Shown in pieces: positions 1-6,579 of a stretch of 6,579 nt of DNA. Every line of letters begins with the position of its first letter. Position 1 is the stretch's first letter. The notes under the pieces were generated by a model that was given only the letters and a program-made list of their open reading frames with translations, did no database searches and had not been told where the DNA came from. The DNA lies in the IMG/VR virus record IMGVR_UViG_2541047595_000016, one strand, 5' to 3'. The stretch is from a virus. Taxonomy: Duplodnaviria > Heunggongvirae > Uroviricota > Caudoviricetes. Both the position numbers and the translations under genes were made by a program.

Positions 1-36
1 ACGGACTTCGGGGGAAAAACGAGTATTTTTAGTCAT
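1..36 (-). CDS. IS3-family transposase OrfA, N-terminal 12 codons only (5' partial in window)
   Basis: Reverse complement of 1-36 = ATG ACT AAA AAT ACT CGT TTT TCC CCC GAA GTC CGT = MTKNTRFSPEVR; AGG/GAGG-containing leader upstream (GAGAAAGAGGTAAACAGG). Too short for the ORF track. Recognised from memory as the IS629/IS1203 OrfA start. Confidence 0.7.
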   Translation of the reverse strand, partial: MTKNTRFSPEVR

Positions 37-90
37 CCTGTTTACCTCTTTCTCAGGAAGTTTAGTCTCCAGGATTCCCGGGGCGGTTCA
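1..90 (-). mobile_element. Left end of an IS3-family insertion sequence (IS629/IS1203-like), partial; continues beyond the window start
   Basis: Minus strand 90->37 reads TGAACCGCCCCGGGAATCCTGGAGACTAAACTTCCTGAGAAAGAGGTAAACAGG, a 5'-TG... terminal inverted repeat that I recognise from memory as the IS629 end. It is followed by ATG at 36-34 opening MTKNTRFSPEVR, the IS629-type OrfA N-terminus. The element ends at TGA/TCA at position 90. The other end is outside the window, so target-site duplication cannot be checked. Confidence 0.75.
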
Positions 91-189
91 AACGTCTTGG
101 GCTACAAACCATGGTTGGCCATCGATAATGATGGAACGGATAGGGTTAACAGATTCAAATTTGAAGATGGCAGTTTGAGCATTAGCCAT
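91..189 (-). pseudogene. Bro-N-type phage antirepressor, N-terminal 33 codons, truncated by the IS insertion
   Basis: Minus-strand ATG at 189-187 preceded by GGAGA (204-200) with an 8-nt spacer. Translation MANAQTAIFKFESVNPIRSIIIDGQPWFVAQDV matches the Bro-N/antirepressor N-terminal pattern (F.F......R...IDG.PWFVA.DV). The next in-frame codon is the TGA formed by the IS terminus at 90-88. Confidence 0.65.
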
Positions 190-207
190 GGTGGTTATCT
201 CCACTTA

Positions 208-221
208 GTGATTTTAATCAC
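208..221. promoter_or_regulatory. 14-bp palindrome GTGATTTTAATCAC just upstream of the antirepressor RBS; candidate operator overlapping a -10-like TAAAAT
   Basis: Seen in sequence: 208-221 gtgattttaatcac has half-sites GTGATT/AATCAC. On the minus strand it contains TAAAAT about 13 nt upstream of the GGAGA Shine-Dalgarno. Regulatory role is inference only. Confidence 0.3.
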
Positions 222-345
222 CACCGCAACGCCAATTACTGGTGGTGAACTGGACAAGGTTGGCGTACCGGCCTAAGTGGTACCGGCGTCCTTTCGGACC
301 CCTGCCCAGCCCACCATAATTCGGATATAGCTGTGCTTAACGCAT

Positions 346-368
346 AAAAAAACCACGTCTGGCGTGGT
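346..368 (-). terminator. Rho-independent terminator for the minus-strand small gene
   Basis: Minus strand reads A-CCACG-CCAGA-CGTGG-TTTTTTT (stem 353-357/363-367, 5-nt loop, 7-T tract from 352-346). The run is on the correct side for minus-strand transcription arriving from the 505-777 gene. Confidence 0.6.
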
Positions 369-504
369 ATGCGCCACTTAGTAACCCGGGACGCCAATCC
401 CGGCACTGGATTTTGCCAGTGCCCGATTACTATGGCACAAGAGGAGTGCGATGTAAATTTACTGCAAAGGTAAATATAAGCACTCCTATTGGTAATTTCA
501 AATC

Positions 505-762
505 TTATCTGGTTTGTTTTCGTAATTGTTCGGCACAATAGTCGAGATGTGTTTGCAGATCCTGCATAGACATCTGTGAGCTGGTGACGTAGTTAATCAG
601 TGCAGTCAGTTCGGCAAGTGGGCCATCGACATTAAATCCATCCTTATCGAGATCCCGGAGTAATTTCATCAAGTGCGATCCCTCCACCAGTGACCTGACG
701 CCTCCCGGCGTGTGAATCCTTTCGGTAAATCCCTCTTCCAGTGGATAGTGATACTGCTGCAT
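505..762 (-). CDS. Small hypothetical protein (85 aa from ATG 762; 90 aa if ATG 777), apparently LexA/SOS-controlled; function unknown, possibly a small antirepressor-type regulator
   Basis: ORF-track ORF 505..777. The second ATG (762-760) has a well-spaced GGAGAAG Shine-Dalgarno; the first ATG (777-775) has none. A near-consensus LexA box lies at 785-800 immediately upstream. Stop TAA at 507-505, then a terminator at 346-368. I do not recognise the protein family by eye. Confidence 0.6.
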   Translation of the reverse strand: MQQYHYPLEEGFTERIHTPGGVRSLVEGSHLMKLLRDLDKDGFNVDGPLAELTALINYVTSSQMSMQDLQTHLDYCAEQLRKQTR

Positions 763-784
763 CTTAATCTTCTCCATGCAATAA

Positions 785-800
785 CTGTATATTTATACAG
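785..800. promoter_or_regulatory. LexA (SOS) box CTGT-N8-ACAG
   Basis: 783-802 = AACTGTATATTTATACAGTA versus the E. coli consensus TACTGTATATATATACAGTA (2 mismatches in 20; CTGT and ACAG intact with 8-bp AT-rich spacer). It contains -10-like hexamers on both strands (TATAAA on minus, TATATT on plus). It lies 7 bp from ATG 777 and 22 bp from ATG 762 of the minus-strand gene. Confidence 0.85.
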
Positions 801-958
801 TAGCAAATAATTTGTTTGCTATCCAGCACGTTTTGCAAATTACCTGAAAGGTAATATCTATTCATATTCACAGTCTTTCTATCCATATATGGTTTTTTGG
901 GTAATAGAATAACCAGATATGCGGCGCAACGGGTGCTGCGACTATCTGGAGATTTAAC

Positions 959-3421
959 ATGACGGTCTCAACCGAAGTTGACCACAACGAATACACAGGT
1001 AACGGCGTTACGACATCATTTCCGTATACCTTCCGTATTTTCAAAAAATCCGACCTGGTTGTTCAGGTGTCTGACCTTAACGGTAACGTTACAAAACTAG
1101 TGCTGGATGCTGGTTATACGGTAACAGGGGCGGGAACTTATAGTGGCGGTGCAGTGGTTCTTCCGTCGCCGCTTGCTGCTGGCTGGCGAATCACGATAGA
1201 GCGTGTGCTTGATGTGGTGCAGGAGACTGATCTTCGCAATCAGGGAAAATTTTTCCCCGAAGTTCATGAGGATGCATTTGACTACCTGACGATGCTGATC
1301 CAGCGATGTTTTGGGTGGTTCAGACGTGCATTGATGAAACCATCTTTGCTTGCAAAATATTACGATGCAAAGCAAAACAGAATATCTAACCTTGCCGATC
1401 CATCACTTGAGCAGGACGCTGTAAATAATCGCTCAATGCGTAATTATGTCGATGCTGCAATCGCCGGAGTTATTGGTGGTTTTGGTTGGTTTATTCAGTA
1501 TGGTTCTGGAGCGGTATACAGAACGTTCCAGGATAAGATGCGTGATGGTGTCAGCATTAAGGATTTTGGAGCTCAAAATGGAATCTTAAATGATAACAAG
1601 GATGCTTTTACAAAATCATTACATTCGTTTAGCAGTGTTTTTGTTCCGGAAGGGGTATTCAATACATCTTTAGTTTCTCTTTCACGTTGTGGCTTGTACG
1701 GAACAGGTGGGGGAACGATAAAACAGTATGACAGAGATGGTAATCATCTGGTTTTTAACATGCCCGATGGTGGCATGCTTAGTACGCTAACAATTATGGG
1801 AAATAAATCAGATGATAGTGTGCAGGGACACCAGGTGTCATTTTCAGGTGGCCATGATGTATCGGTTAAAAATATCAGATTTACAAATACGCGAGGACCA
1901 GGATTTAGCTTGATCGCTTATCCGGATAATGGTATTCCGTCAGGTTACATTGTTAGAGATATAAGAGGAGAGTATTTAGGGTTCGCAAATAATAAAAAAG
2001 CAGGTTGTGTGCTTTTTGATTCATCGCAAAATACGCTAATTGATGGTGTGATAGCCAGAAATTATCCTCAGTTTGGTGCAGTGGAACTTAAAACAGCAGC
2101 AAAATATAACATTGTCAGCAATGTTATTGGTGAAGAGTGTCAGCACGTTGTTTACAATGGAACTGAGACGGAAACTGCCCCAACGAATAATATCATTAGC
2201 AGTGTAATGGCTAACAACCCAAAATACGCCGCAGTAGTTGTTGGCAAGGGGACTGGTAACCTGATTTCGGATGTGCTGGTTGATTACTCTGAATCGGACG
2301 CAAAGCAGGCGCACGGCGTCACCGTTCAGGGAAATAATAATATTGCCAGTAATATTCTAATGACTGGGTGTGATGGGAAAAATGAATCAGGAGATCTGCA
2401 GACATCTACAACCATTCGTTTCTTAGATGCTGCACGCAGTAATTATGCGTCAATATTCCCCATGTATAGTTCTTCCGGCGTGGTTACCTTCGAGGAAGGG
2501 TGTATCAGGAACTTTGTTGAAATTAAACATCCGGGTGACAGAAATAATATTCTGAGTTCTGCATCAGCGGTGACTGGTATTTCCAGTATAGACGGCACTA
2601 CAAATAGCAATGTTGTTCACGTCCCTGCGCTTGGTCAGTACGTTGGGACTATGTCAGGGCGTTTTGAATGGTGGGTTAAATATTTTAACCTTGCTAACCA
2701 GACGCTTGTTTCTGCAGATAAATTCAGAATGCTTGCTGAAGGCGATGTATCTCTGGCTGTGGGAGGCGGTATAAGTTCGCAATTGAAATTATTCAATAGT
2801 GATAATACTAAAGGCACTATGTCGCTAATAAATGGAAATATTCGAATATCTACTGGAAATTCAGAATATATACAGTTTTCTGATTCAGCCATGACACCAT
2901 CGACAACGAATACTTATTCTCTTGGGTTGGCTGGTCGTGCATGGTCGGGGGGATTTACCCAGTCAGCGTTTACGGTGCTGTCCGATGCGCGTTTCAAGAC
3001 TGCTCCAGAGGTTATTGATGAGAAAATACTGGACGCATGGGAAAGAGTGGAATGGGTTTCATACCAGTACCTTGACAGGATCGAAGTGAAAGGTAAAGAC
3101 GGAGCAAGATGGCACTTTGGTGCAGTTGCGCAGCATGTTATCAGTGTATTTCAGAATGAAGGCATAGATGTGTCACGACTGGCATTTATCTGTTATGACA
3201 AGTGGAATGAGACCCCGGCAGAATACAGGGATGTGACGGAAGAAGAGCATTCTGCAGGAGTTTACCCACTTATACAGACAAAGGTTCTGGTACGCGAAGC
3301 CGTCGAGGCTGGTGAATGTTACGGTATCCGTTATGAAGAGGCTCTGATTCTGGAATCTGCGATGATGAGACGCAGGGTTAAAAAGCTGGAAGAGCAAGTT
3401 TTGCAATTAACAGGGAATTGA
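959..3421 (+). CDS. Phage tailspike/tail-fibre receptor-binding protein (820 aa): N-terminal virion-anchor domain, central right-handed beta-helix (probable polysaccharide depolymerase), C-terminal intramolecular chaperone/peptidase S74-type self-cleaving domain
   Basis: ATG 959 with GGAGA at 948-952 and a 6-nt spacer. Residues 1-120 (YTGNGVTTSFPYTFRIF...LVLDAGYTVT...) resemble the N-terminal anchor domain of T7 gp17-like fibres. Residues about 290-640 are Asn/Gly/Ser/Thr/Val-rich with asparagine-ladder runs typical of beta-helix tailspikes (NNIISSVMANN, QGNNNIASNILMTGCDG). Residues 675-680 SDARFK fit the S-D-x-R-x-K autoproteolysis motif (Ser nucleophile, Lys at +5) of endosialidase-type C-terminal chaperone domains. 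Stop TGA 3419-3421. Confidence 0.9.
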   Translation: MTVSTEVDHNEYTGNGVTTSFPYTFRIFKKSDLVVQVSDLNGNVTKLVLDAGYTVTGAGTYSGGAVVLPSPLAAGWRITIERVLDVVQETDLRNQGKFFPEVHEDAFDYLTMLIQRCFGWFRRALMKPSLLAKYYDAKQNRISNLADPSLEQDAVNNRSMRNYVDAAIAGVIGGFGWFIQYGSGAVYRTFQDKMRDGVSIKDFGAQNGILNDNKDAFTKSLHSFSSVFVPEGVFNTSLVSLSRCGLYGTGGGTIKQYDRDGNHLVFNMPDGGMLSTLTIMGNKSDDSVQGHQVSFSGGHDVSVKNIRFTNTRGPGFSLIAYPDNGIPSGYIVRDIRGEYLGFANNKKAGCVLFDSSQNTLIDGVIARNYPQFGAVELKTAAKYNIVSNVIGEECQHVVYNGTETETAPTNNIISSVMANNPKYAAVVVGKGTGNLISDVLVDYSESDAKQAHGVTVQGNNNIASNILMTGCDGKNESGDLQTSTTIRFLDAARSNYASIFPMYSSSGVVTFEEGCIRNFVEIKHPGDRNNILSSASAVTGISSIDGTTNSNVVHVPALGQYVGTMSGRFEWWVKYFNLANQTLVSADKFRMLAEGDVSLAVGGGISSQLKLFNSDNTKGTMSLINGNIRISTGNSEYIQFSDSAMTPSTTNTYSLGLAGRAWSGGFTQSAFTVLSDARFKTAPEVIDEKILDAWERVEWVSYQYLDRIEVKGKDGARWHFGAVAQHVISVFQNEGIDVSRLAFICYDKWNETPAEYRDVTEEEHSAGVYPLIQTKVLVREAVEAGECYGIRYEEALILESAMMRRRVKKLEEQVLQLTGN

Positions 3422-3493
3422 ACCGTAAATGGTGTGTTGTTGCGCGGTATACTTTTCCTGAAGCAGGGTGTTTGCAAATAAACGGGTTTCGTT

Positions 3494-3898
3494 ATGTCAT
3501 TCCAACTAACCAATGAAACTTCAAATCAGTGGCTTAGTGTTAGTTCTCTTGCTGCGGTTATTGCAGGTGTCCCTCCGGAGGTTGCTTTGGGGGCTTTGGC
3601 TGGGGCGGTAATTTTTGTTACCTCTGCGGTAGAGTATCCTATTCGTCGTCGTGTACTCTTGTCGATGCTTAGCTTTCTCTGCGGCCTTCTTTTTTATAAA
3701 CCAGCAGCATCAATTCTTATCGGCATAGCCAGCCTGATCCCTACCATCACGCAGGACTCTTTTGAAAAAGGGATTGTTTTCTCAGCTGGCGCATTCGTGT
3801 CAGCAATTGTTGCTGTGCGTATTGGTATATGGCTCTATCACCGTTCCGATAATCCACGCGAGTTAATTCCGGGGAGAAAAGACGATGGTAACGCATGA
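3494..3898 (+). CDS. Small multi-pass membrane protein (134 aa), first gene of the lysis cassette; holin or antiholin candidate
   Basis: Three to four hydrophobic segments (about 30-46, 54-68, 70-85, 93-115) and a charged C-terminal tail ([19 protein letters not shown]). Its stop overlaps the next gene's start (ATGGTAACGCATGA). Weak Shine-Dalgarno at ATG 3494; an internal TTG at 3587 has a better GGAGG site. Function is from context only. Confidence 0.55.
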   Translation: MSFQLTNETSNQWLSVSSLAAVIAGVPPEVALGALAGAVIFVTSAVEYPIRRRVLLSMLSFLCGLLFYKPAASILIGIASLIPTITQDSFEKGIVFSAGAFVSAIVAVRIGIWLYHRSDNPRELIPGRKDDGNA

Positions 3899-4193
3899 GT
3901 TTTTTTTGCTTATCACCAATGCAGTTATTTGTACTGGCATAGCAATTCGCGTTGTCACATTCCGGCGTAACGGATCTCAACATCGAAGATTGGGAGGGTG
4001 GCTTGCTTATTTCCTTATTGTTGCTGCGGCAAGTATTCCTGTTCGTGTCGTCTATGCAATCTGGTTACGCACGCCAATGGCTGTGGATTTATCTGAGGTC
4101 ATTATCAACGCTGTCATGCTGGCTGCGGTTATTAAAACGCGCGGTAACGTCGTTCAAATTTTTAAAGTATCGAGGTCTAAACATGGAGATTAA
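3885..4193 (+). CDS. Small three-TM membrane protein (102 aa), putative holin
   Basis: ATG 3885 preceded by GGGGAGA with a 7-nt spacer. Three hydrophobic helices (about 6-24, 36-61, 67-83) and a basic C-terminus ([19 protein letters not shown]). Its 3' end overlaps the endolysin start by 11 nt, implying translational coupling. Confidence 0.6.
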
Positions 4194-4812
4194 ACAATTC
4201 CAGCGAGCTGCTGGTATCAGCGAGGCACTGGCCGCACGCTGGATCTCGCATATAACTTCTGCGATGAAAGAGTTTGGTATCAGCAAACCCGAAGATCAGG
4301 CAATGTTTATTGCTCAGGTCGGGCATGAGTCTGGTGGCTTCAACCGGTTGCAGGAAAATTTCAACTACAGCGTCACCGGACTGGCTAACTTCGTTCGGGC
4401 TGGGCGTCTCACTCAGGGGCAGGCTAATGCACTGGGGCGCCGTGCTGGTGAACCACCATTGCCACTTGAGCGCCAGCGCGCGATCGCAAATCTGGTATAC
4501 AGCAAACGCATGGGGAACAATGCCCCTGGTGATGGCTGGAATTACCGAGGGCGCGGACTTATCCAGATTACCGGTTTGAATAACTATCGTGATTGCGGAA
4601 ACGGTCTGAAGGTTGACCTGCTGGAGAGCCCTGAACTGCTGGCGCAGGACGAATATGCGGCTCGTAGCGCGGCGTGGTTCTTCGCCAGCAAAGGATGCAT
4701 GAAGTATACCGGCGATATTGCACGTGTAACTCTGATTATCAATGGTGGCCGGAACGGCATCGACGACCGGCGAGCGCGGTACATCACTGCCAGTAAGGTG
4801 CTGGCGGTATGA
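4183..4812 (+). CDS. Endolysin, glycoside hydrolase family 19 (chitinase-class-I-like lysozyme), 209 aa
   Basis: ATG 4183 with GAGG at 4172-4175. GH19 motifs VGHESGGF and [15 protein letters not shown]. The two putative catalytic Glu fall at residues 49 and 58 by my count, which matches my memory of the numbering reported for the Salmonella phage SPN1S GH19 endolysin. N-terminus is not hydrophobic, so no SAR signal. The ORF-track start at 3952 is a TTG extension through the upstream gene and is not used. Confidence 0.9.
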
Positions 4813-5291
4813 TCTGGGCATTCGTAAAAGCATACTGGAAACAGTTGCTTATCGTGGCAGTGCTTGCTGTTCTGGTCATATCAGGAGTGGTTGCCTGGAA
4901 TATACACGGCAGTCGCCAGTACGATGCCGGGTATGCGCAGGCGGAAGAAGACCGCAAAGCCGAAGAAGACAAAGTTCGTCAGTACTACGAACAGGAGAAA
5001 GTGGCCAATGAACGTGAAGCTCAGCAGAGGATCGACCAGGCGCGCAATGATGCTCTTGATGCTGCCGCTCGCGCTGGCCGGTTGCAGCAACAACTCTTTG
5101 CCATCCGTGAGCAGCTCAGGCAGTATAACGCCATTGTCGGCGCTGGGACGTCAGCCGCAGACACCGGAGTTTTGCTTGCCGACGTGCTCAGCAAATCTCT
5201 CGAGAGAAACAGACAACTGGCAGAGTATGCTGACCGGGCAGCCGAAGCCGGAAGAGTCTGCGAAAAACAGTACGACACACTGACCAGATAG
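4809..5291 (+). CDS. Rz-type i-spanin (inner-membrane spanin subunit), 160 aa
   Basis: ATG overlaps the endolysin stop (ATGA at 4809-4812). N-terminal TM helix ([18 protein letters not shown]) followed by a long charged, Ala/Gln/Glu/Arg-rich predicted coiled-coil periplasmic domain with a single C-terminal Cys. Position right after the endolysin. Confidence 0.85.
5047..5283 (+). CDS. Rz1-type o-spanin (outer-membrane lipoprotein), 78 aa, wholly embedded in the +1 frame of the i-spanin gene
   Basis: ATGATG at 5047-5052 opens [13 protein letters not shown] with lipobox LAGC and Ser at +2 (outer-membrane sorting). The mature part is Pro/Ser-rich and short with Cys residues, typical of o-spanins. 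The ORF-track ORF 4864..5283 is the same frame over-extended upstream. Confidence 0.8.
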   Translation: MMLLMLPLALAGCSNNSLPSVSSSGSITPLSALGRQPQTPEFCLPTCSANLSRETDNWQSMLTGQPKPEESAKNSTTH

Positions 5292-5372
5292 CATGGCATT
5301 TTTCATGGTACTGATTTCCGGTGACGGTATATAAAACGGTACGAGAAAAATTCATCTTTGGAAAAATGTTAT

Positions 5373-5409
5373 CACTCAATTAGTTATGGTGTCCGTAAAT
5401 AATTGAGTG
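5373..5409. repeat. Perfect 10-bp inverted repeat (CACTCAATTA ... TAATTGAGTG) with 17-bp spacer, spanning the proposed phage-host junction
   Basis: Seen in sequence: 5373-5382 cactcaatta and 5400-5409 taattgagtg are exact reverse complements. The right arm overlaps the ATTGAGTGG codons of the GuaA-like C-terminus. Confidence 0.5.
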
Positions 5410-5416
5410 GGAATGA
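5402..5416 (+). other. guaA: Orphan 3' terminus of guaA (GMP synthase) coding sequence, ...IEWE-stop; candidate attR core region
   Basis: ATT GAG TGG GAA TGA = I-E-W-E-stop. GMP synthase ends ...PPATIEWE (from memory). The frame upstream is closed by TAA at 5396-5398 and no GuaA body is present; phage lysis genes are there instead. Fits a prophage integrated at the 3' end of guaA. Confidence 0.5.
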
Positions 5417-5440
5417 TTTGACCCTGCACTATGAATGAAC

Positions 5441-5470
5441 AAAACCCTCTGTTACTACAGAGGGTTTTTT
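5441..5470. terminator. Bidirectional Rho-independent terminator between the convergent lysis operon/guaA remnant and the minus-strand host genes
   Basis: AAAA-ACCCTCTGT-tact-ACAGAGGGT-TTTTTT: stem 5443-5452 pairs with 5457-5466 (GC-rich core of 7 bp), 4-nt loop, T-tract 5465-5470 on plus strand; a weaker T-rich run follows on the minus strand. Confidence 0.75.
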
Positions 5471-5508
5471 ATCTTCAAGAATTATAGGATTGAAGTTACT
5501 AACATCGA

Positions 5509-6048
5509 TTAATTAAACCAGCTGTCCGATTTGTTCTCTTCTGCTTTGCCCACGCTTTTCATCAGATCGCGACCGCCTTCAGTCATATTTCTGTTGGCGT
5601 CAGCTTCAGATTGCACCACATCGGTTTGCGCAGCTTTGTGCTTCAGTTCCTGATCGATAAATTCGTTTTCTCGCTTAACGCGGGCTTCTTCTTTCGCCAG
5701 CGCCAGTTTTTGTTTCTGAATCTCTAAGCTGCGTAGCTCATCTTCATAACTTTGATCGCGTTTTTTGTCCGCAGAGGCTTCGGCGTCCAGTTTATCCTGA
5801 CGAGCTTTCTTATTTGCCGCTGCCGTTGCCGCTCTTTTGTTAGCGGCGGCCTGGGCATTTGCGCGACGTTGCTTCTCTTGCTGGATTTCCCTGTTGCGCT
5901 CCGCGACCCATTCGTCATGCTGCCTTTGCTCTTCATTTTTACCTTGCTGTTCCGCTTCTGCGACAGCAGAGAGTTGATCCTGCAATGATGAGGCGATAGC
6001 CGGATAGCTTAAGGAGGCTAAGATGGCGCAAAGAAAAACTTTCTTCAT
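5509..6048 (-). CDS. yfgI: Secreted (Sec signal peptide) Lys/Arg/Glu/Gln-rich coiled-coil periplasmic protein, 179 aa; host gene, tentatively YfgI
   Basis: ATG 6048-6046 with AGGAGGAG Shine-Dalgarno. Signal peptide MKKVFLCAILASLSYPAIA then an A-x-A cleavage site. The mature protein is highly charged and low-complexity (QRRANAQAAANKRAATAAANKKARQDK...). The name rests on my memory that E. coli yfgI encodes a 179-aa protein and lies beside guaA with yfgH; the sequence itself was not verified. Confidence 0.55.
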   Translation of the reverse strand: MKKVFLCAILASLSYPAIASSLQDQLSAVAEAEQQGKNEEQRQHDEWVAERNREIQQEKQRRANAQAAANKRAATAAANKKARQDKLDAEASADKKRDQSYEDELRSLEIQKQKLALAKEEARVKRENEFIDQELKHKAAQTDVVQSEADANRNMTEGGRDLMKSVGKAEENKSDSWFN

Positions 6049-6063
6049 GACTCCTCCTGATTA

Positions 6064-6579
6064 TTAGCTCTTTTCAGGACATTTGGTATTTGGCTGAATA
6101 CGCGTTTCGTTATACGTCGTGGTAATAACAACGGCTAAACCTGTCGTAAACTGGCACTCTTTACCCACCTGGGTAGAGGTATACACTTTGGTGCCTTCCT
6201 TATAGGTTAAAGAAACACCTTCCACTAAGGTTTTATCATTCACCATAGAACCCGCTGCCGCGCCTACAGCTCCGCCGCCAACTGCACCTGCCGTCGTTCC
6301 GGAATTGCTGCCAGACCCGACGTTGTGGCCGATAACACCGCCAGCGACTGCGCCAATAAGCGCGCCGAAGGCTTGTGCGTTCCGTTTATTTTGGGAGTTG
6401 TCTACGGCAACTTTTGCGGGAAGAATGGAAATAATATTAACGGTTTTAGTTTCTTGTTTGGTATTCAGTTGATCGGTTTGATAAACATCGGCAGCATGAT
6501 CGTCAGCATTTGACTGGCATCCTGCCAGAGTGAATGACGCTAACATTGCCACAGGCAGAAGACATTTTTTAAATTTCAT
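6064..6579 (-). CDS. yfgH: Glycine-zipper outer-membrane lipoprotein (SlyB/Pcp-like), 171 aa as read; host gene, tentatively YfgH
   Basis: ATG at 6579-6577, exactly at the window edge (RBS not visible; the true start could be one or more codons further upstream). Signal peptide with lipobox LAGC and Gln at +2. Gly/Ala-rich glycine-zipper segment (FGALIGAVAGGVIGHNVGSG...AGAVGGGAVGAAAGS). Lies 15 bp upstream of the 5509-6048 gene, so probably an operon. The name is from memory of the K-12 yfgH-yfgI-guaA neighbourhood; unverified. Confidence 0.5.
   Translation of the reverse strand: MKFKKCLLPVAMLASFTLAGCQSNADDHAADVYQTDQLNTKQETKTVNIISILPAKVAVDNSQNKRNAQAFGALIGAVAGGVIGHNVGSGSNSGTTAGAVGGGAVGAAAGSMVNDKTLVEGVSLTYKEGTKVYTSTQVGKECQFTTGLAVVITTTYNETRIQPNTKCPEKS

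Follow-up and report, generated by a model that had tools for sequence, protein, structure and literature searches.

Positions 190 to 504 of the window (the whole stretch of viral DNA that was analysed, 6,579 nucleotides [nt]), read on the minus strand, are very probably the leader that regulates an antirepressor module of the P1/P7 immI type in a phiV10-like (Uetakevirus) prophage. Only two Rfam families reached their thresholds across the whole window, isrK and C4, with covariance-model E values of 1e-11 to 1e-14, and the elements follow the order annotated for P1 immI: promoters and operator, a1, b1, c4, a2, b2, and start codon. Such a switch would keep the prophage antirepressor gene silent and appears to have gone unannotated so far in this phiV10-like Escherichia coli prophage. 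The P1/P7-type (C4/IsrK) antisense RNA switch is a well-known kind of phage control element, and no new principle is involved here. The promoters, terminator efficiency, processing sites, and repression described below for 190-504 are what we infer from the sequence together with P1 and Gifsy-1.

An IsrK-like leader and a C4-type RNA on the minus strand

The isrK match (422 to 346) covered the full model (positions 1 to 77) with 67.7 bits (gathering score [GA], 50; E, 4e-14), and the C4 match (321 to 238) was likewise full length (1 to 87), with 66.0 bits (GA, 45; E, 2e-12). The c4-a1b1 family (RF03163) scored 44.1 bits at 435 to 383, 2.6 bits short of its gathering score of 46.7; elsewhere, this model gives 51.0 bits for P1 and 50.5 bits for VT2-Sakai, and the P1 leader also scores 35 bits on the isrK model. 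Since the RF03163 match overlaps the isrK match, the two are the same element under two Rfam names, which links the literature on P1 c4 with that on Salmonella IsrK. A tRNA/tmRNA scan of the sequence gave no match. The minus-strand RNA from 422 to 180 folded with −99 kcal/mol, compared to −79.3 ± 4.9 kcal/mol for shuffled sequences (z = −4.0; 0 of 200 shuffles were as good), which together with the two Rfam matches indicates that the region is far more structured than expected by chance. All features are listed in Table 1.

Table 1. Coordinates of observed and predicted features in and around window positions 190 to 504
Feature	Position	Strand	Remarks
IS629-type insertion sequence end	1..90	-	interrupts BRO-N gene; transposase OrfA start 40..38
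BRO-N antirepressor gene, first ~33 codons	89..189	-	intact form 236 aa; truncated in window
b2 target CUAAGUGG	208..201	-	overlaps Shine-Dalgarno GGAG (202..199) of BRO-N antirepressor gene
Hairpin UCACCACC / GGUGGUGA	218..248	-	presents a2 UUGGCGU (235..229)
Stem TCACCACC/GGTGGTGA	218-225/241-248		from first-pass annotation; confirmed
C4-type antisense RNA	238..321	-	Rfam RF01695
Predicted mature C4	315..241	-	by homology to annotated P1 c4 ends
a' ACGCCAA	266..260	-	single-stranded, after b' hairpin
b' CCACUUAG	280..273	-	second C4 hairpin loop
Direct repeat GTACCGGC	265-272/280-287		from first-pass annotation; really two arms of one hairpin with self-complementary CCGG core
IsrK-like leader RNA (c4 a1/b1 target leader)	346..422	-	Rfam RF01394 isrK
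Intrinsic terminator (predicted)	stem 368-363/357-352, U-tract to 346	-	terminator scan; 6-bp stem and U7
b1 target CUAAGUGG	381..374	-	within leader
Leader hairpin 2	403-399/390-386	-	a1 UUGGCGU (397..391) presented in loop; CCGGG/CCCGG arms (386-390/399-403) of first-pass annotation, confirmed by sequence reading
Leader hairpin 1	423-416/409-402	-	8-bp stem, 6-nt loop (402-409/416-423) of first-pass annotation, confirmed
IsrK/leader promoter (predicted)	429..457	-	-35 TTTACA 457..452, 17-nt spacer, extended -10 TGcCATAGT ending at 429
Inverted repeat CAAGAGGAGTGC / GCACTCCTATTG	438-449/480-491	.	contains AGGAGTGC/GCACTCCT
Inverted repeat AGGAGTGC/GCACTCCT	442-449/480-487		from first-pass annotation; extendable to 12 nt at 92% complementarity
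Palindrome GTAAATTTAC	453-462		from first-pass annotation; confirmed; overlaps right half of probable operator 459-473
Probable phage repressor (Rep) operator TTACTGCAAAGGTAA	459..473	.	TTACC-N5-GGTAA with 1 mismatch
P-up, predicted sigma-70-like promoter	473..501	-	-35 TTGAAA 501..496, 17-nt spacer, -10 TATATT 478..473
Small antirepressor gene	505..777	-	90-aa ORF (RefSeq 85 aa); SPC32H Ant ortholog; phrog_450
LexA box AACTGTATATTTATACAGTA	783..802	.	promoter of small antirepressor gene

In C4, a long outer stem encloses a GNRA-like hairpin and a second one that corresponds to the GTACCGGC repeat; the 3' end of the RNA reads ACCA, as in tRNAs. The structures are kept in homologous loci: the same minimum free energy fold of C4 was predicted in all 15 loci compared, 14 of the 27 consensus pairs of the C4 alignment fold carry compensatory changes, and so do 8 of 13 consensus pairs in the leader. 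A first-pass annotation of this DNA had listed six repeats and stems between 190 and 504, and repeat search and sequence reading recovered all of them at the coordinates given. Its judgement that the region holds no convincing open reading frame (ORF) also stands: an ORF at 236-538 exists, but close relatives carry indels of 1, 2, 3, and 6 nt in it. Coding readings of this ORF and of those at 273-377, 369-473, and 413-541 were ruled out by frame-breaking indels in close relatives and by RNA-type covariation.

The same annotation had likened the region to a P22-type immI. An antirepressor gene is indeed preceded by an immI-like control region, but one of the P1/P7 type and not of the P22 type, with neither sar nor arc/mnt. 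A P22-like arrangement, in which a cis-antisense sar RNA would come from the opposite strand and accompany small Arc/Mnt-type regulator genes, would fit the position of the region, which in this short-tailed temperate phage precedes an antirepressor gene and adjoins the tailspike gene as in P22; we give it next to no probability, because no sar family match was found in Rfam at an E value of ≤1 on either strand, the sole plus-strand terminator-like site in 190-504 is a weak 5-bp stem at 190-205, small ORFs are not conserved (frame-breaking indels in close relatives), arc/mnt-like genes are missing, and every structured element reads on the ant strand.

Predicted promoters and a probable repressor operator

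The hexamers of P-up match the consensus at 10 of 12 positions, and equivalent hexamers with 17-nt spacing are retained in phiV10, Tyrion, and Kp4865-1 despite sequence divergence, suggesting that P-up is a promoter. For the predicted IsrK promoter, the start expected near 422 falls on position 1 of the Rfam isrK model, the promoter-like site lying 7 nt before it, and the stretch from −35 to −10 is almost invariant in all ten Uetakevirus-type loci, among which both this site and the leader terminator are conserved.

The candidate operator at 459-473 sits between the −10 element of P-up and the −35 element of the IsrK promoter. Its motif, TTACC-N5-GGTAA, occurs 14 times in phiV10 (0.77 expected); 12 of these copies are intergenic, a class that makes up 6.5% of the genome, and 2 lie between the repressor and cro-like genes. 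Half of the SPC32H genome holds 15 copies (0.4 expected), with three sites between rep and the cro-like gene. This distribution suggests that Rep binds at 459-473. The arms at 438-449 and 480-491 form the outside of a long palindrome whose centre is the candidate operator. At the same place, phiV10 has a perfect 18-bp palindrome (GGAGTGCTTATATTTACC-gcaaa-GGTAAATATAAGCACTCC); in Tyrion and Kp4865-1, conservation does not extend to the outer arms. Two tandem predicted promoters and one probable operator underlie the AGGAGTGC/GCACTCCT repeat and the AT-rich palindrome.

The first-pass annotation had considered a small RNA or a cluster of operator sites. A small regulatory RNA is encoded and at least one operator-like site is present, but most of the listed stems are RNA elements and not operators. 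That the repeats are mainly protein-binding sites, forming an operator cluster for the phage repressor or another regulator, is in our estimation very unlikely: the match at 459-473 to a motif enriched in the intergenic DNA of phiV10 and SPC32H, within a longer palindrome, speaks for it, but the window has two such sites, 459-473 and 840-854, and only the former is inside 190-504. The AT-rich palindrome region (459-473) alone among the listed elements matches the dispersed operator-like motif, and the other stems map to helices of the isrK and C4 covariance models, with RNA-type compensatory changes that include G-U pairs.

Predicted pairing of C4 with its target sites

The b' sequence is exactly complementary to b1 and to b2 (8 bp each), and a' to a1 and to a2 (7 bp each), with duplex energies of −11.7 kcal/mol for a'-a2 and −12.6 kcal/mol for b'-b2. 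The AUG of the BRO-N gene (189..187) lies 9 nt past the Shine-Dalgarno (SD) sequence, the whole element spanning 187 to 208, and the overlap between b2 and the SD sequence is also found in relatives. The 5' arm of the a2 hairpin also supplies the 3' side of the outer stem of C4, and before processing the transcript can form only one of the two helices at a time; the a2 hairpin was predicted in 15 of 15 loci, with a compensatory variant (UCAUCAC/GUGAUGA) in Aaphi23.

Covariation was followed in 21 related loci, phage P1 among them (the 15 loci and 6 further ones), across which all three copies of each specificity sequence change together. The 15 loci comprise six a types and at least ten b types, each altered at all three sites. 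Here, the longest duplexes formed by b' averaged 8.7 nt (b1) and 9.3 nt (b2) within the own locus and 5.1 and 5.9 nt with other loci. C4-to-leader duplexes averaged −23.8 kcal/mol for own and −16.4 kcal/mol for non-own pairs, and the own leader was the best partner in 12 of 15 rows; for the remaining 3 C4 RNAs, a non-own leader scores as well or better, and the matrices of run length and energy are noisy. In the ten Uetakevirus-type loci, whose backbone is nearly identical, a and b types are re-assorted and altered at all three sites, and such re-assortment is seen between E. coli prophages. phiV10 carries b type CCUUUUAG and 2020S05-235 carries CCUACUAG, and KKo003 has the same b as the window (CCACUUAG) combined with a different a.

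These data fit the following mechanism. Transcription would start at two tandem sigma-70 promoters flanking the probable Rep operator, mainly near 422. The first 77 nt would form the IsrK-like leader, with a1 in a hairpin loop, then b1, then the intrinsic terminator predicted from the sequence, where most transcripts should end as a short RNA. Read-through transcripts would enter C4 and could be excised at about 315 to 241, RNase P making the 5' end; the C4 fold is borne out by covariation, and RNase P excision is suggested by similarity to the annotated P1 ends and by the ACCA tail. Mature C4 would then pair through its b' loop and single-stranded a' with b2 on the SD sequence and a2 in the next hairpin loop, as complementarity and three-way covariation indicate, and by analogy to P1 would block translation of the BRO-N antirepressor. 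In P1, C4 pairing also causes premature termination. Judging from Gifsy-1 genetics, a1 and b1 in the leader may be decoys competing for C4; how much leader there is relative to C4 would then set a threshold, and the antirepressor would be de-repressed by a surplus of the short leader RNA. Immunity specificity would lie in the a and b sequences, a resident prophage silencing an incoming ant only if the a/b types match. Recognition of a C4/IsrK immI could explain the silence of the second antirepressor in phiV10-like prophages, and the a/b types of prophages could predict which are heteroimmune.

A related, experimentally studied leader is that of the isrK-orf45 (STnc1160)-anrP locus of Gifsy-1 in Salmonella (Hershko-Shalev et al. 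2016; PMC4825925). As predicted here, it combines an isrK-family leader having its own promoter and intrinsic terminator with a processed stable RNA downstream (STnc1160, in the C4 position) and then an antirepressor-like gene. Pairing a1-a' corresponds to Gifsy-1 helix b-I, which was proven there by the compensatory mutants G28A/C162U and G31A/C159U (PMC4825925). In Gifsy-1, anrP translation rises about 140-fold when short IsrK is provided in trans (PMC4825925), and a positive switch of this type might operate here too, with a read-through mRNA locked in an inactive form until the short leader, acting in trans, opens the ribosome binding site of an upstream ORF coupled to the antirepressor. 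Besides the trans effect shown experimentally in Gifsy-1, this reading draws on a leader that scores above the isrK threshold and has its own predicted promoter and terminator, and on CACCACC, which pairs alternatively with the 5' strand of C4 or with GGUGGUGA, like structures A and B of the Gifsy-1 study (PMC4825925). We nevertheless consider it rather doubtful, for lack of an orf45 equivalent. An icd/orf45-type coupled ORF was sought in the 15 loci and is not conserved: the frame from the conserved C4 AUG has 14 codons here and 8 to more than 74 codons over these loci. The 14-codon frame ends inside C4, 84 nt before the ant AUG, and the start of the BRO-N ant gene follows directly after b2. 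The translational coupling published for both studied systems, P1/P7 and Gifsy-1, therefore cannot apply here. In addition, b2 directly overlaps the SD sequence of ant and covaries with b', neither of which the orf45 model needs. A positive switch would be compatible with repression by C4, and not exclusive of it, since the leader can be a decoy for C4. Gifsy-1 also differs in the gene upstream, which here is an SPC32H-type ant gene and not an AntQ-type antiterminator gene.

The flanking antirepressor genes

The gene to the left, which had been called the antirepressor, does encode one, but it is the second antirepressor of the locus, of the BRO-N type, and truncated by IS629 after about 33 codons. 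From window position 89 onwards it is identical to the gene in E. coli 4/1-1; homology to the intact prophage is lost left of position 89, and window positions 1 to 93/94 are 97 to 98% identical to Stx-phage sequences annotated as IS629 OrfA/transposase. The intact homolog matches the Bro-N Pfam family (E, 1e-19), and its C-terminal 78 amino acids are 42% identical to the small Ant. Overexpression of the homologous ORF4 of phage ZX5 shifts that phage towards lysis (PMC9782041).

Because IS629 has destroyed the controlled gene in the window, the most that the RNA module could do here is to act in trans on other phages; otherwise it is a relic. We judge it unlikely that the region is a functionless relic in this strain, serving just as the 3' untranslated region and terminator of the LexA-controlled small antirepressor gene. 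Such a relic would accord with the truncation of the BRO-N gene, with the terminator (368..346) being the first downstream of the small ant gene, and with the fact that SPC32H and epsilon15-type phages manage without the whole module. Yet no decay is visible in the 315-bp region, which matches an intact prophage at 100% identity, and family-wide covariation shows selection on the elements. In P1, C4 is trans-acting, so it could still provide immunity against incoming phages of the same a/b types.

The gene to the right (505-777) had been taken for a small SOS gene, by implication DinI-like, and is instead an SPC32H-type antirepressor gene with a LexA box in front. No DinI match was found in Pfam or NCBIfam; the product matched PDB entry 5D50_E, "Anti-repressor protein" (E, 1.7e-47; residues 7 to 89), and is 89% identical in amino acids to Ant of Salmonella phage SPC32H. 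The LexA box deviates from the 20-nt consensus at 2 positions, with 0 chance matches expected, and phiV10 and Tyrion keep CTGT-N8-ACAG at the corresponding position. The control of SPC32H ant by LexA and the sites of Rep binding are taken as background from secondary citations and from the sequence evidence here. Two lambdoid loci (L010 and L016) also have LexA-like CTGT-N8-ACAG boxes, some 250 nt upstream of the module; the one inspected was a weak match.

Relation to known immunity systems

The module resembles P1/P7 immI in its one-strand order, which includes a terminator-like hairpin between b1 and c4 and places b2 at the ribosome binding site of the antirepressor, in the C4 fold and the placement of a' and b', and in a and b sequences that would define specificity, as the literature states for P1 versus P7 heteroimmunity. 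Whereas P1/P7 have icd (icd-ant1/2), there is none here and b2 lies on the SD sequence of ant itself; several C4 family members likewise have no icd, which is a feature of P1/P7 and not of the Rfam family. The antirepressor here, a BRO-N protein, does not share its name with P1 Ant1/2. The operator is TTACC-N5-GGTAA between the promoters, whereas that of P1 lies on the −35 element of the upstream promoter. The host of the module is a 39-kb integrating podovirus and not a plasmid prophage; directly upstream of the module and on its strand is a second antirepressor gene, under LexA control.

The authors of the IsrK study cite phage P4 immunity as a structural homolog (PMC4825925). According to the literature, P4 CI RNA (seqA/seqC) is likewise a small RNA processed from the leader of its own operon, with complementary sites on both sides, but it terminates transcription of replication genes and does not occlude an antirepressor ribosome binding site; the Rfam scan gave no P4 CI family match here. 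In the APSE phages of Hamiltonella, isrK and c4 adjoin a BRO-N domain gene, and a'/b' are complementary to its upstream region (PMC7313666). By the published description, these belong to another phage lineage and host, with no LexA-controlled small Ant upstream as far as reported.

The Rep-Ant system of SPC32H and epsilon15 (PDB 5D50) shares with the window the ant ortholog, a LexA box at the same place, and the same operator-like motif around rep and upstream of ant. In SPC32H, the IsrK/C4/BRO-N module is missing and convergent structural genes follow directly after ant; as read from these sequences, the RNA module has been added in the members from E. coli, Enterobacter, and Klebsiella. We tentatively suggest, as an idea that may well prove wrong, that the Uetakeviruses of these hosts have thereby added an RNA-gated second key to the SPC32H-type LexA/Ant/Rep switch. 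The key would be a C4-locked BRO-N protein that includes a copy of the Rep-binding domain of Ant, and the a/b "barcodes" would re-assort freely among prophages with the same repressor. If so, the module would be both an anti-immunity weapon and an immunity barcode in competition between prophages: a phage that enters with a barcode unlike that of the resident prophage would make its antirepressor and induce the resident, and the module would be tied to lysogeny through the Rep operator that lies between its two promoters.

The region is present in 457 of 5,426 complete E. coli genomes (∼8%); at none of the matches listed there does a feature annotation cover it. Several Stx-phage records hide it within over-extended "Rha/Ant" coding sequence calls.

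A predicted IsrK-like leader and C4 RNA precede the BRO-N antirepressor gene

An Rfam scan of positions 1-1100 returned three matches in total, all on the minus strand: isrK (RF01394; 422..346; 67.7 bits, gathering score 50), C4 antisense RNA (RF01695; 321..238; 66 bits, gathering score 45) and, overlapping the isrK match, c4-a1b1 (RF03163; 435..383), whose 44.1 bits lie below the gathering score of 46.7. With the whole window scanned, isrK and C4 were the sole families at threshold; a tRNA scan found none. The first-pass annotation had described 190-504 as structured DNA with six repeat elements and no convincing ORF. All six elements were recovered at the positions given (by repeat search; CCGGG/CCCGG by reading the sequence), and the predicted fold of minus-strand RNA 422..180 is 4 standard deviations more stable than those of shuffled sequences. 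The 402-423 and 386-403 stems are leader hairpins 1 and 2, the "direct repeat" GTACCGGC forms the stem of hairpin 2 of C4, and the 218-248 stem is the hairpin after C4. A 100-aa ORF (236-538) does exist, but indels of 1, 2, 3, and 6 nt cross it in close relatives. The proposed analogy to P22 sar did not hold.

Features of the antirepressor module, in minus-strand order
Feature	Position	Strand	Remark
LexA box, near-consensus	783-802		promoter of small Ant gene; conserved in phiV10 and Tyrion
Stop codon of upstream gene	507..505	minus
Promoter-like site TTGAAA-17-TATATT	501..473	minus
Palindrome matching TTACC-N5-GGTAA	473..459
Second promoter-like site TTTACA-17-TGcCATAGT	457..429	minus	predicted start ~422 = isrK model position 1
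a1 UUGGCGU	397..391	minus	loop of leader hairpin 2
b1 CUAAGUGG	381..374	minus	leader
Intrinsic terminator	368..346	minus	leader
Spacer, leader to C4			24 nt
b' CCACUUAG	280..273	minus	C4 hairpin loop
a' ACGCCAA	266..260	minus	C4, single-stranded
Hairpin UCACCACC/GGUGGUGA		minus	presents a2 UUGGCGU (235..229)
b2 CUAAGUGG	208..201	minus	overlaps SD GGAG (202..199)
BRO-N ant AUG	189	minus
End of IS629-type insertion sequence	1-90		OrfA start 40..38, minus; interrupts BRO-N antirepressor gene

The order of elements is the same as that annotated for P1 immI (Op51, P51a, P51b, a1, b1, c4, a2, b2, icd-ant). The icd (P1)/orf45 (Gifsy-1) feature of both studied examples is absent from the window. At the equivalent position, the leader of P1 carries a terminator-like hairpin, and the isrK model gives this leader (P1 record L009, 48217-48311) 35 bits; therefore, isrK and c4-a1b1 look like one element described twice under two names. 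Both match the same element here (346-422 and 383-435), yet they share no Rfam clan. An earlier annotation of APSE phages describes isrK and C4 arranged with BRO-N (PMC7313666), and a literature search found no publication tying Uetakeviruses or phiV10 to IsrK or C4. In the phiV10 record, only "a terminator" is marked at the module. The region is present in 457 of 5,426 E. coli genomes, and RefSeq carries no annotated feature under the matches listed. The module is previously unannotated but of a known kind, and it is not a new mechanism; what makes it mildly interesting is its context, in which two antirepressors lie in tandem, a probable Rep operator is present, and the a/b barcodes re-assort.

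Fold and target sites covary across 15 loci

We compared 15 loci (the window, phiV10, Tyrion, Kp4865-1, Yersinia vB_YpM_44, VT2-Sakai, IdasGreatGrand, P1, PhiR47_1, Aaphi23, and five Stx phages). All 15 contain an isrK-like leader, a gap of ∼24 nt (69 nt in Aaphi23), and a C4 RNA of similar fold. Consensus folding gave 27 pairs for C4, 14 of them with compensatory changes, and 13 for the leader (8 with compensatory changes). The b' loop occurs in at least 10 versions, with the complement carried by b1 and b2 of each locus, and a' in six, each matched by a1 and a2. The longest b' duplexes averaged 8.7 nt with b1 of the same locus versus 5.1 nt with b1 of others (for b2, 9.3 versus 5.9 nt), and summed duplex energies were −23.8 kcal/mol for own pairs and −16.4 kcal/mol for non-own pairs; the own leader was the best by energy in 12 of the 15 rows. 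The predicted RNAs belong to the C4 and isrK families in their scores, their fold, the layout of their targets, and their covariation.

In PhiR47_1 and four Stx phages, CDSs annotated as "Rha," "Ant," or "hypothetical" start hundreds of bases too early and cross the IsrK and C4 RNAs; there, the conserved C4 AUG happens to share the frame of the downstream gene.

A P1-type mechanism is the best-supported reading, in which we infer all that concerns expression from sequence. C4 would be released from read-through transcripts, and its a' and b' segments would pair with a2 and b2, thereby occluding the SD of the BRO-N ant gene, while the leader copies a1 and b1 would act as competing sites. For the Gifsy-1 homolog, compensatory mutations prove a pairing equivalent to a1:a', and the short IsrK supplied in trans raises antirepressor translation about 140-fold (PMC4825925). 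Starting at the conserved C4 AUG (317..315), the reading frame ends in the b' loop after 14 codons, and its length varies from 8 to >74 codons among loci, so the orf45-coupling step cannot apply here. In P1, C4 is processed by RNase P. Alignment with the annotated P1 c4 5' end predicts a cut at U316|G315, which would split the C4 AUG.

A "clamp" helix may also bracket the leader terminator (340-373, minus strand), with GCGCAU just past b1 pairing with AUGCGU just past the U-tract. Minimum free energy folding predicts such a bracketing helix in the majority of the 15 loci, its arms covarying (for example, GCGACA/UGUUGC, GGCGAU/AUCGUC, and, in P1, GCGGACA/UGUCCGU), and it can form in read-through transcripts only.

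Re-assorted a/b types

Ten Uetakevirus-type loci have almost identical backbones with re-assorted a/b specificities, and each type change is seen at all three sites, which is what a trans-pairing specificity code would predict; the same logic has been reported for P1/P7 heteroimmunity. Re-assortment in near-identical backbones points to recombination or to selection favoring new immunity types.

a/b types of Uetakevirus-type loci
Locus	a type	b type	Remark
Window	GGCGU	CUAAGUGG
KKo003	GGUCU	CUAAGUGG	b of the window with a of Tyrion
phiV10	GGCGU	CUAAAAGG
2020S05-235	GGCGU	CUAGUAGG
ETEC4090, VR50, Tyrion	GGUCU	CUACAAAGG
Kp4865-1	GAGAC	CUACAAAGG

A probable Rep operator between the predicted promoters

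The AGGAGTGC/GCACTCCT repeat and the AT-rich palindrome sit over both predicted promoters; at the same place, phiV10 has a perfect 18-bp palindrome with TTACC-N5-GGTAA as its core. Allowing up to 1 mismatch, this core motif occurs at 14 sites in phiV10 (0.77 expected), 12 of them in intergenic DNA, which makes up 6.5% of the genome, with two sites between the repressor (p40) and a cro-like gene and two on the repressor's other side. Half of the SPC32H genome contains 15 sites (0.4 expected): three between rep and a cro-like gene, three left of rep, and one between ant and the tailspike gene. Its 18- to 37-fold enrichment, near confinement to intergenic DNA, and clustering to either side of the repressor gene make it very probable that this motif is the operator for Rep in this phage group, scattered along the genome like the C1 operators of P1. 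Of the two tandem c4 promoters of P1, the upstream one likewise has an operator for the repressor. In the window, the motif is found at 840-854 and, with one mismatch, at 459-473, where one half-site carries a G-to-A change that the eight other aligned relatives lack (phiV10 is gapped there). Of the "cluster of operators" suggested for 190-504, one site thus stands and the remainder does not.

Two antirepressors in one prophage

The gene at 505-777 (minus strand), initially read as a small SOS gene, has no DinI match in Pfam or NCBIfam. Its product (small Ant) matches the "Anti-repressor protein" of PDB 5D50, chain E (E 1.7e-47), and shares 89% amino acid identity with the annotated ant of Salmonella phage SPC32H; by sequence it is an ortholog of that structurally solved antirepressor. 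SPC32H Ant is reported to take the Rep tetramer apart. The repressor of phiV10 shares 42% identity with SPC32H Rep; its only domains are of the HTH type, and it lacks an S24 peptidase domain. Since SPC32H has no IsrK/C4/BRO-N module, we read the RNA module and BRO-N gene as inserted downstream of the primary antirepressor gene, the one that LexA controls. Over its C-terminal 78 residues, the BRO-N protein shares 42% identity with small Ant (E 1e-16), and both match phrog_450; the prophage thus carries one putative Rep-binding domain in two differently controlled proteins, and that same Rep is probably the target of the BRO-N protein as well. In ZX5, overexpression of the BRO-N protein moves the phage towards lysis (PMC9782041).

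An IS629 end cuts the BRO-N gene

As judged by alignment, the window covers the right end of a Uetakevirus prophage (phiV10/epsilon15-like) that is integrated beside yfgI/yfgH in E. coli. Identity is 98.7% to E. coli 4/1-1 across 89-6579 and 97% to phage HEMP4 across 89-960. The intact-prophage alignment stops exactly at position 89, and window 1-93 matches an IS629 end. The antirepressor gene recognized at first pass is indeed one, of the BRO-N type, but here IS629 truncates it after ∼33 codons; intact, in E. coli 4/1-1 (L001, 3391-4101), it encodes 236 aa (Pfam Bro-N, E 1e-19).

The phiV10 BRO-N protein (p23/p22; L017, 19551-20230) has 194 aa, and its match to the Ant-like C-terminal domain covers just the initial ∼35 residues of that domain; with a separate 29-aa ORF behind it, the gene may be frameshifted or truncated. 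The tailspike (959-3421) combines a beta-helix region with a C-terminal Peptidase_S74 (endosialidase chaperone) domain, and its homology to phiV10 stops shortly past the N terminus, the usual modular swap of receptor-binding domains.
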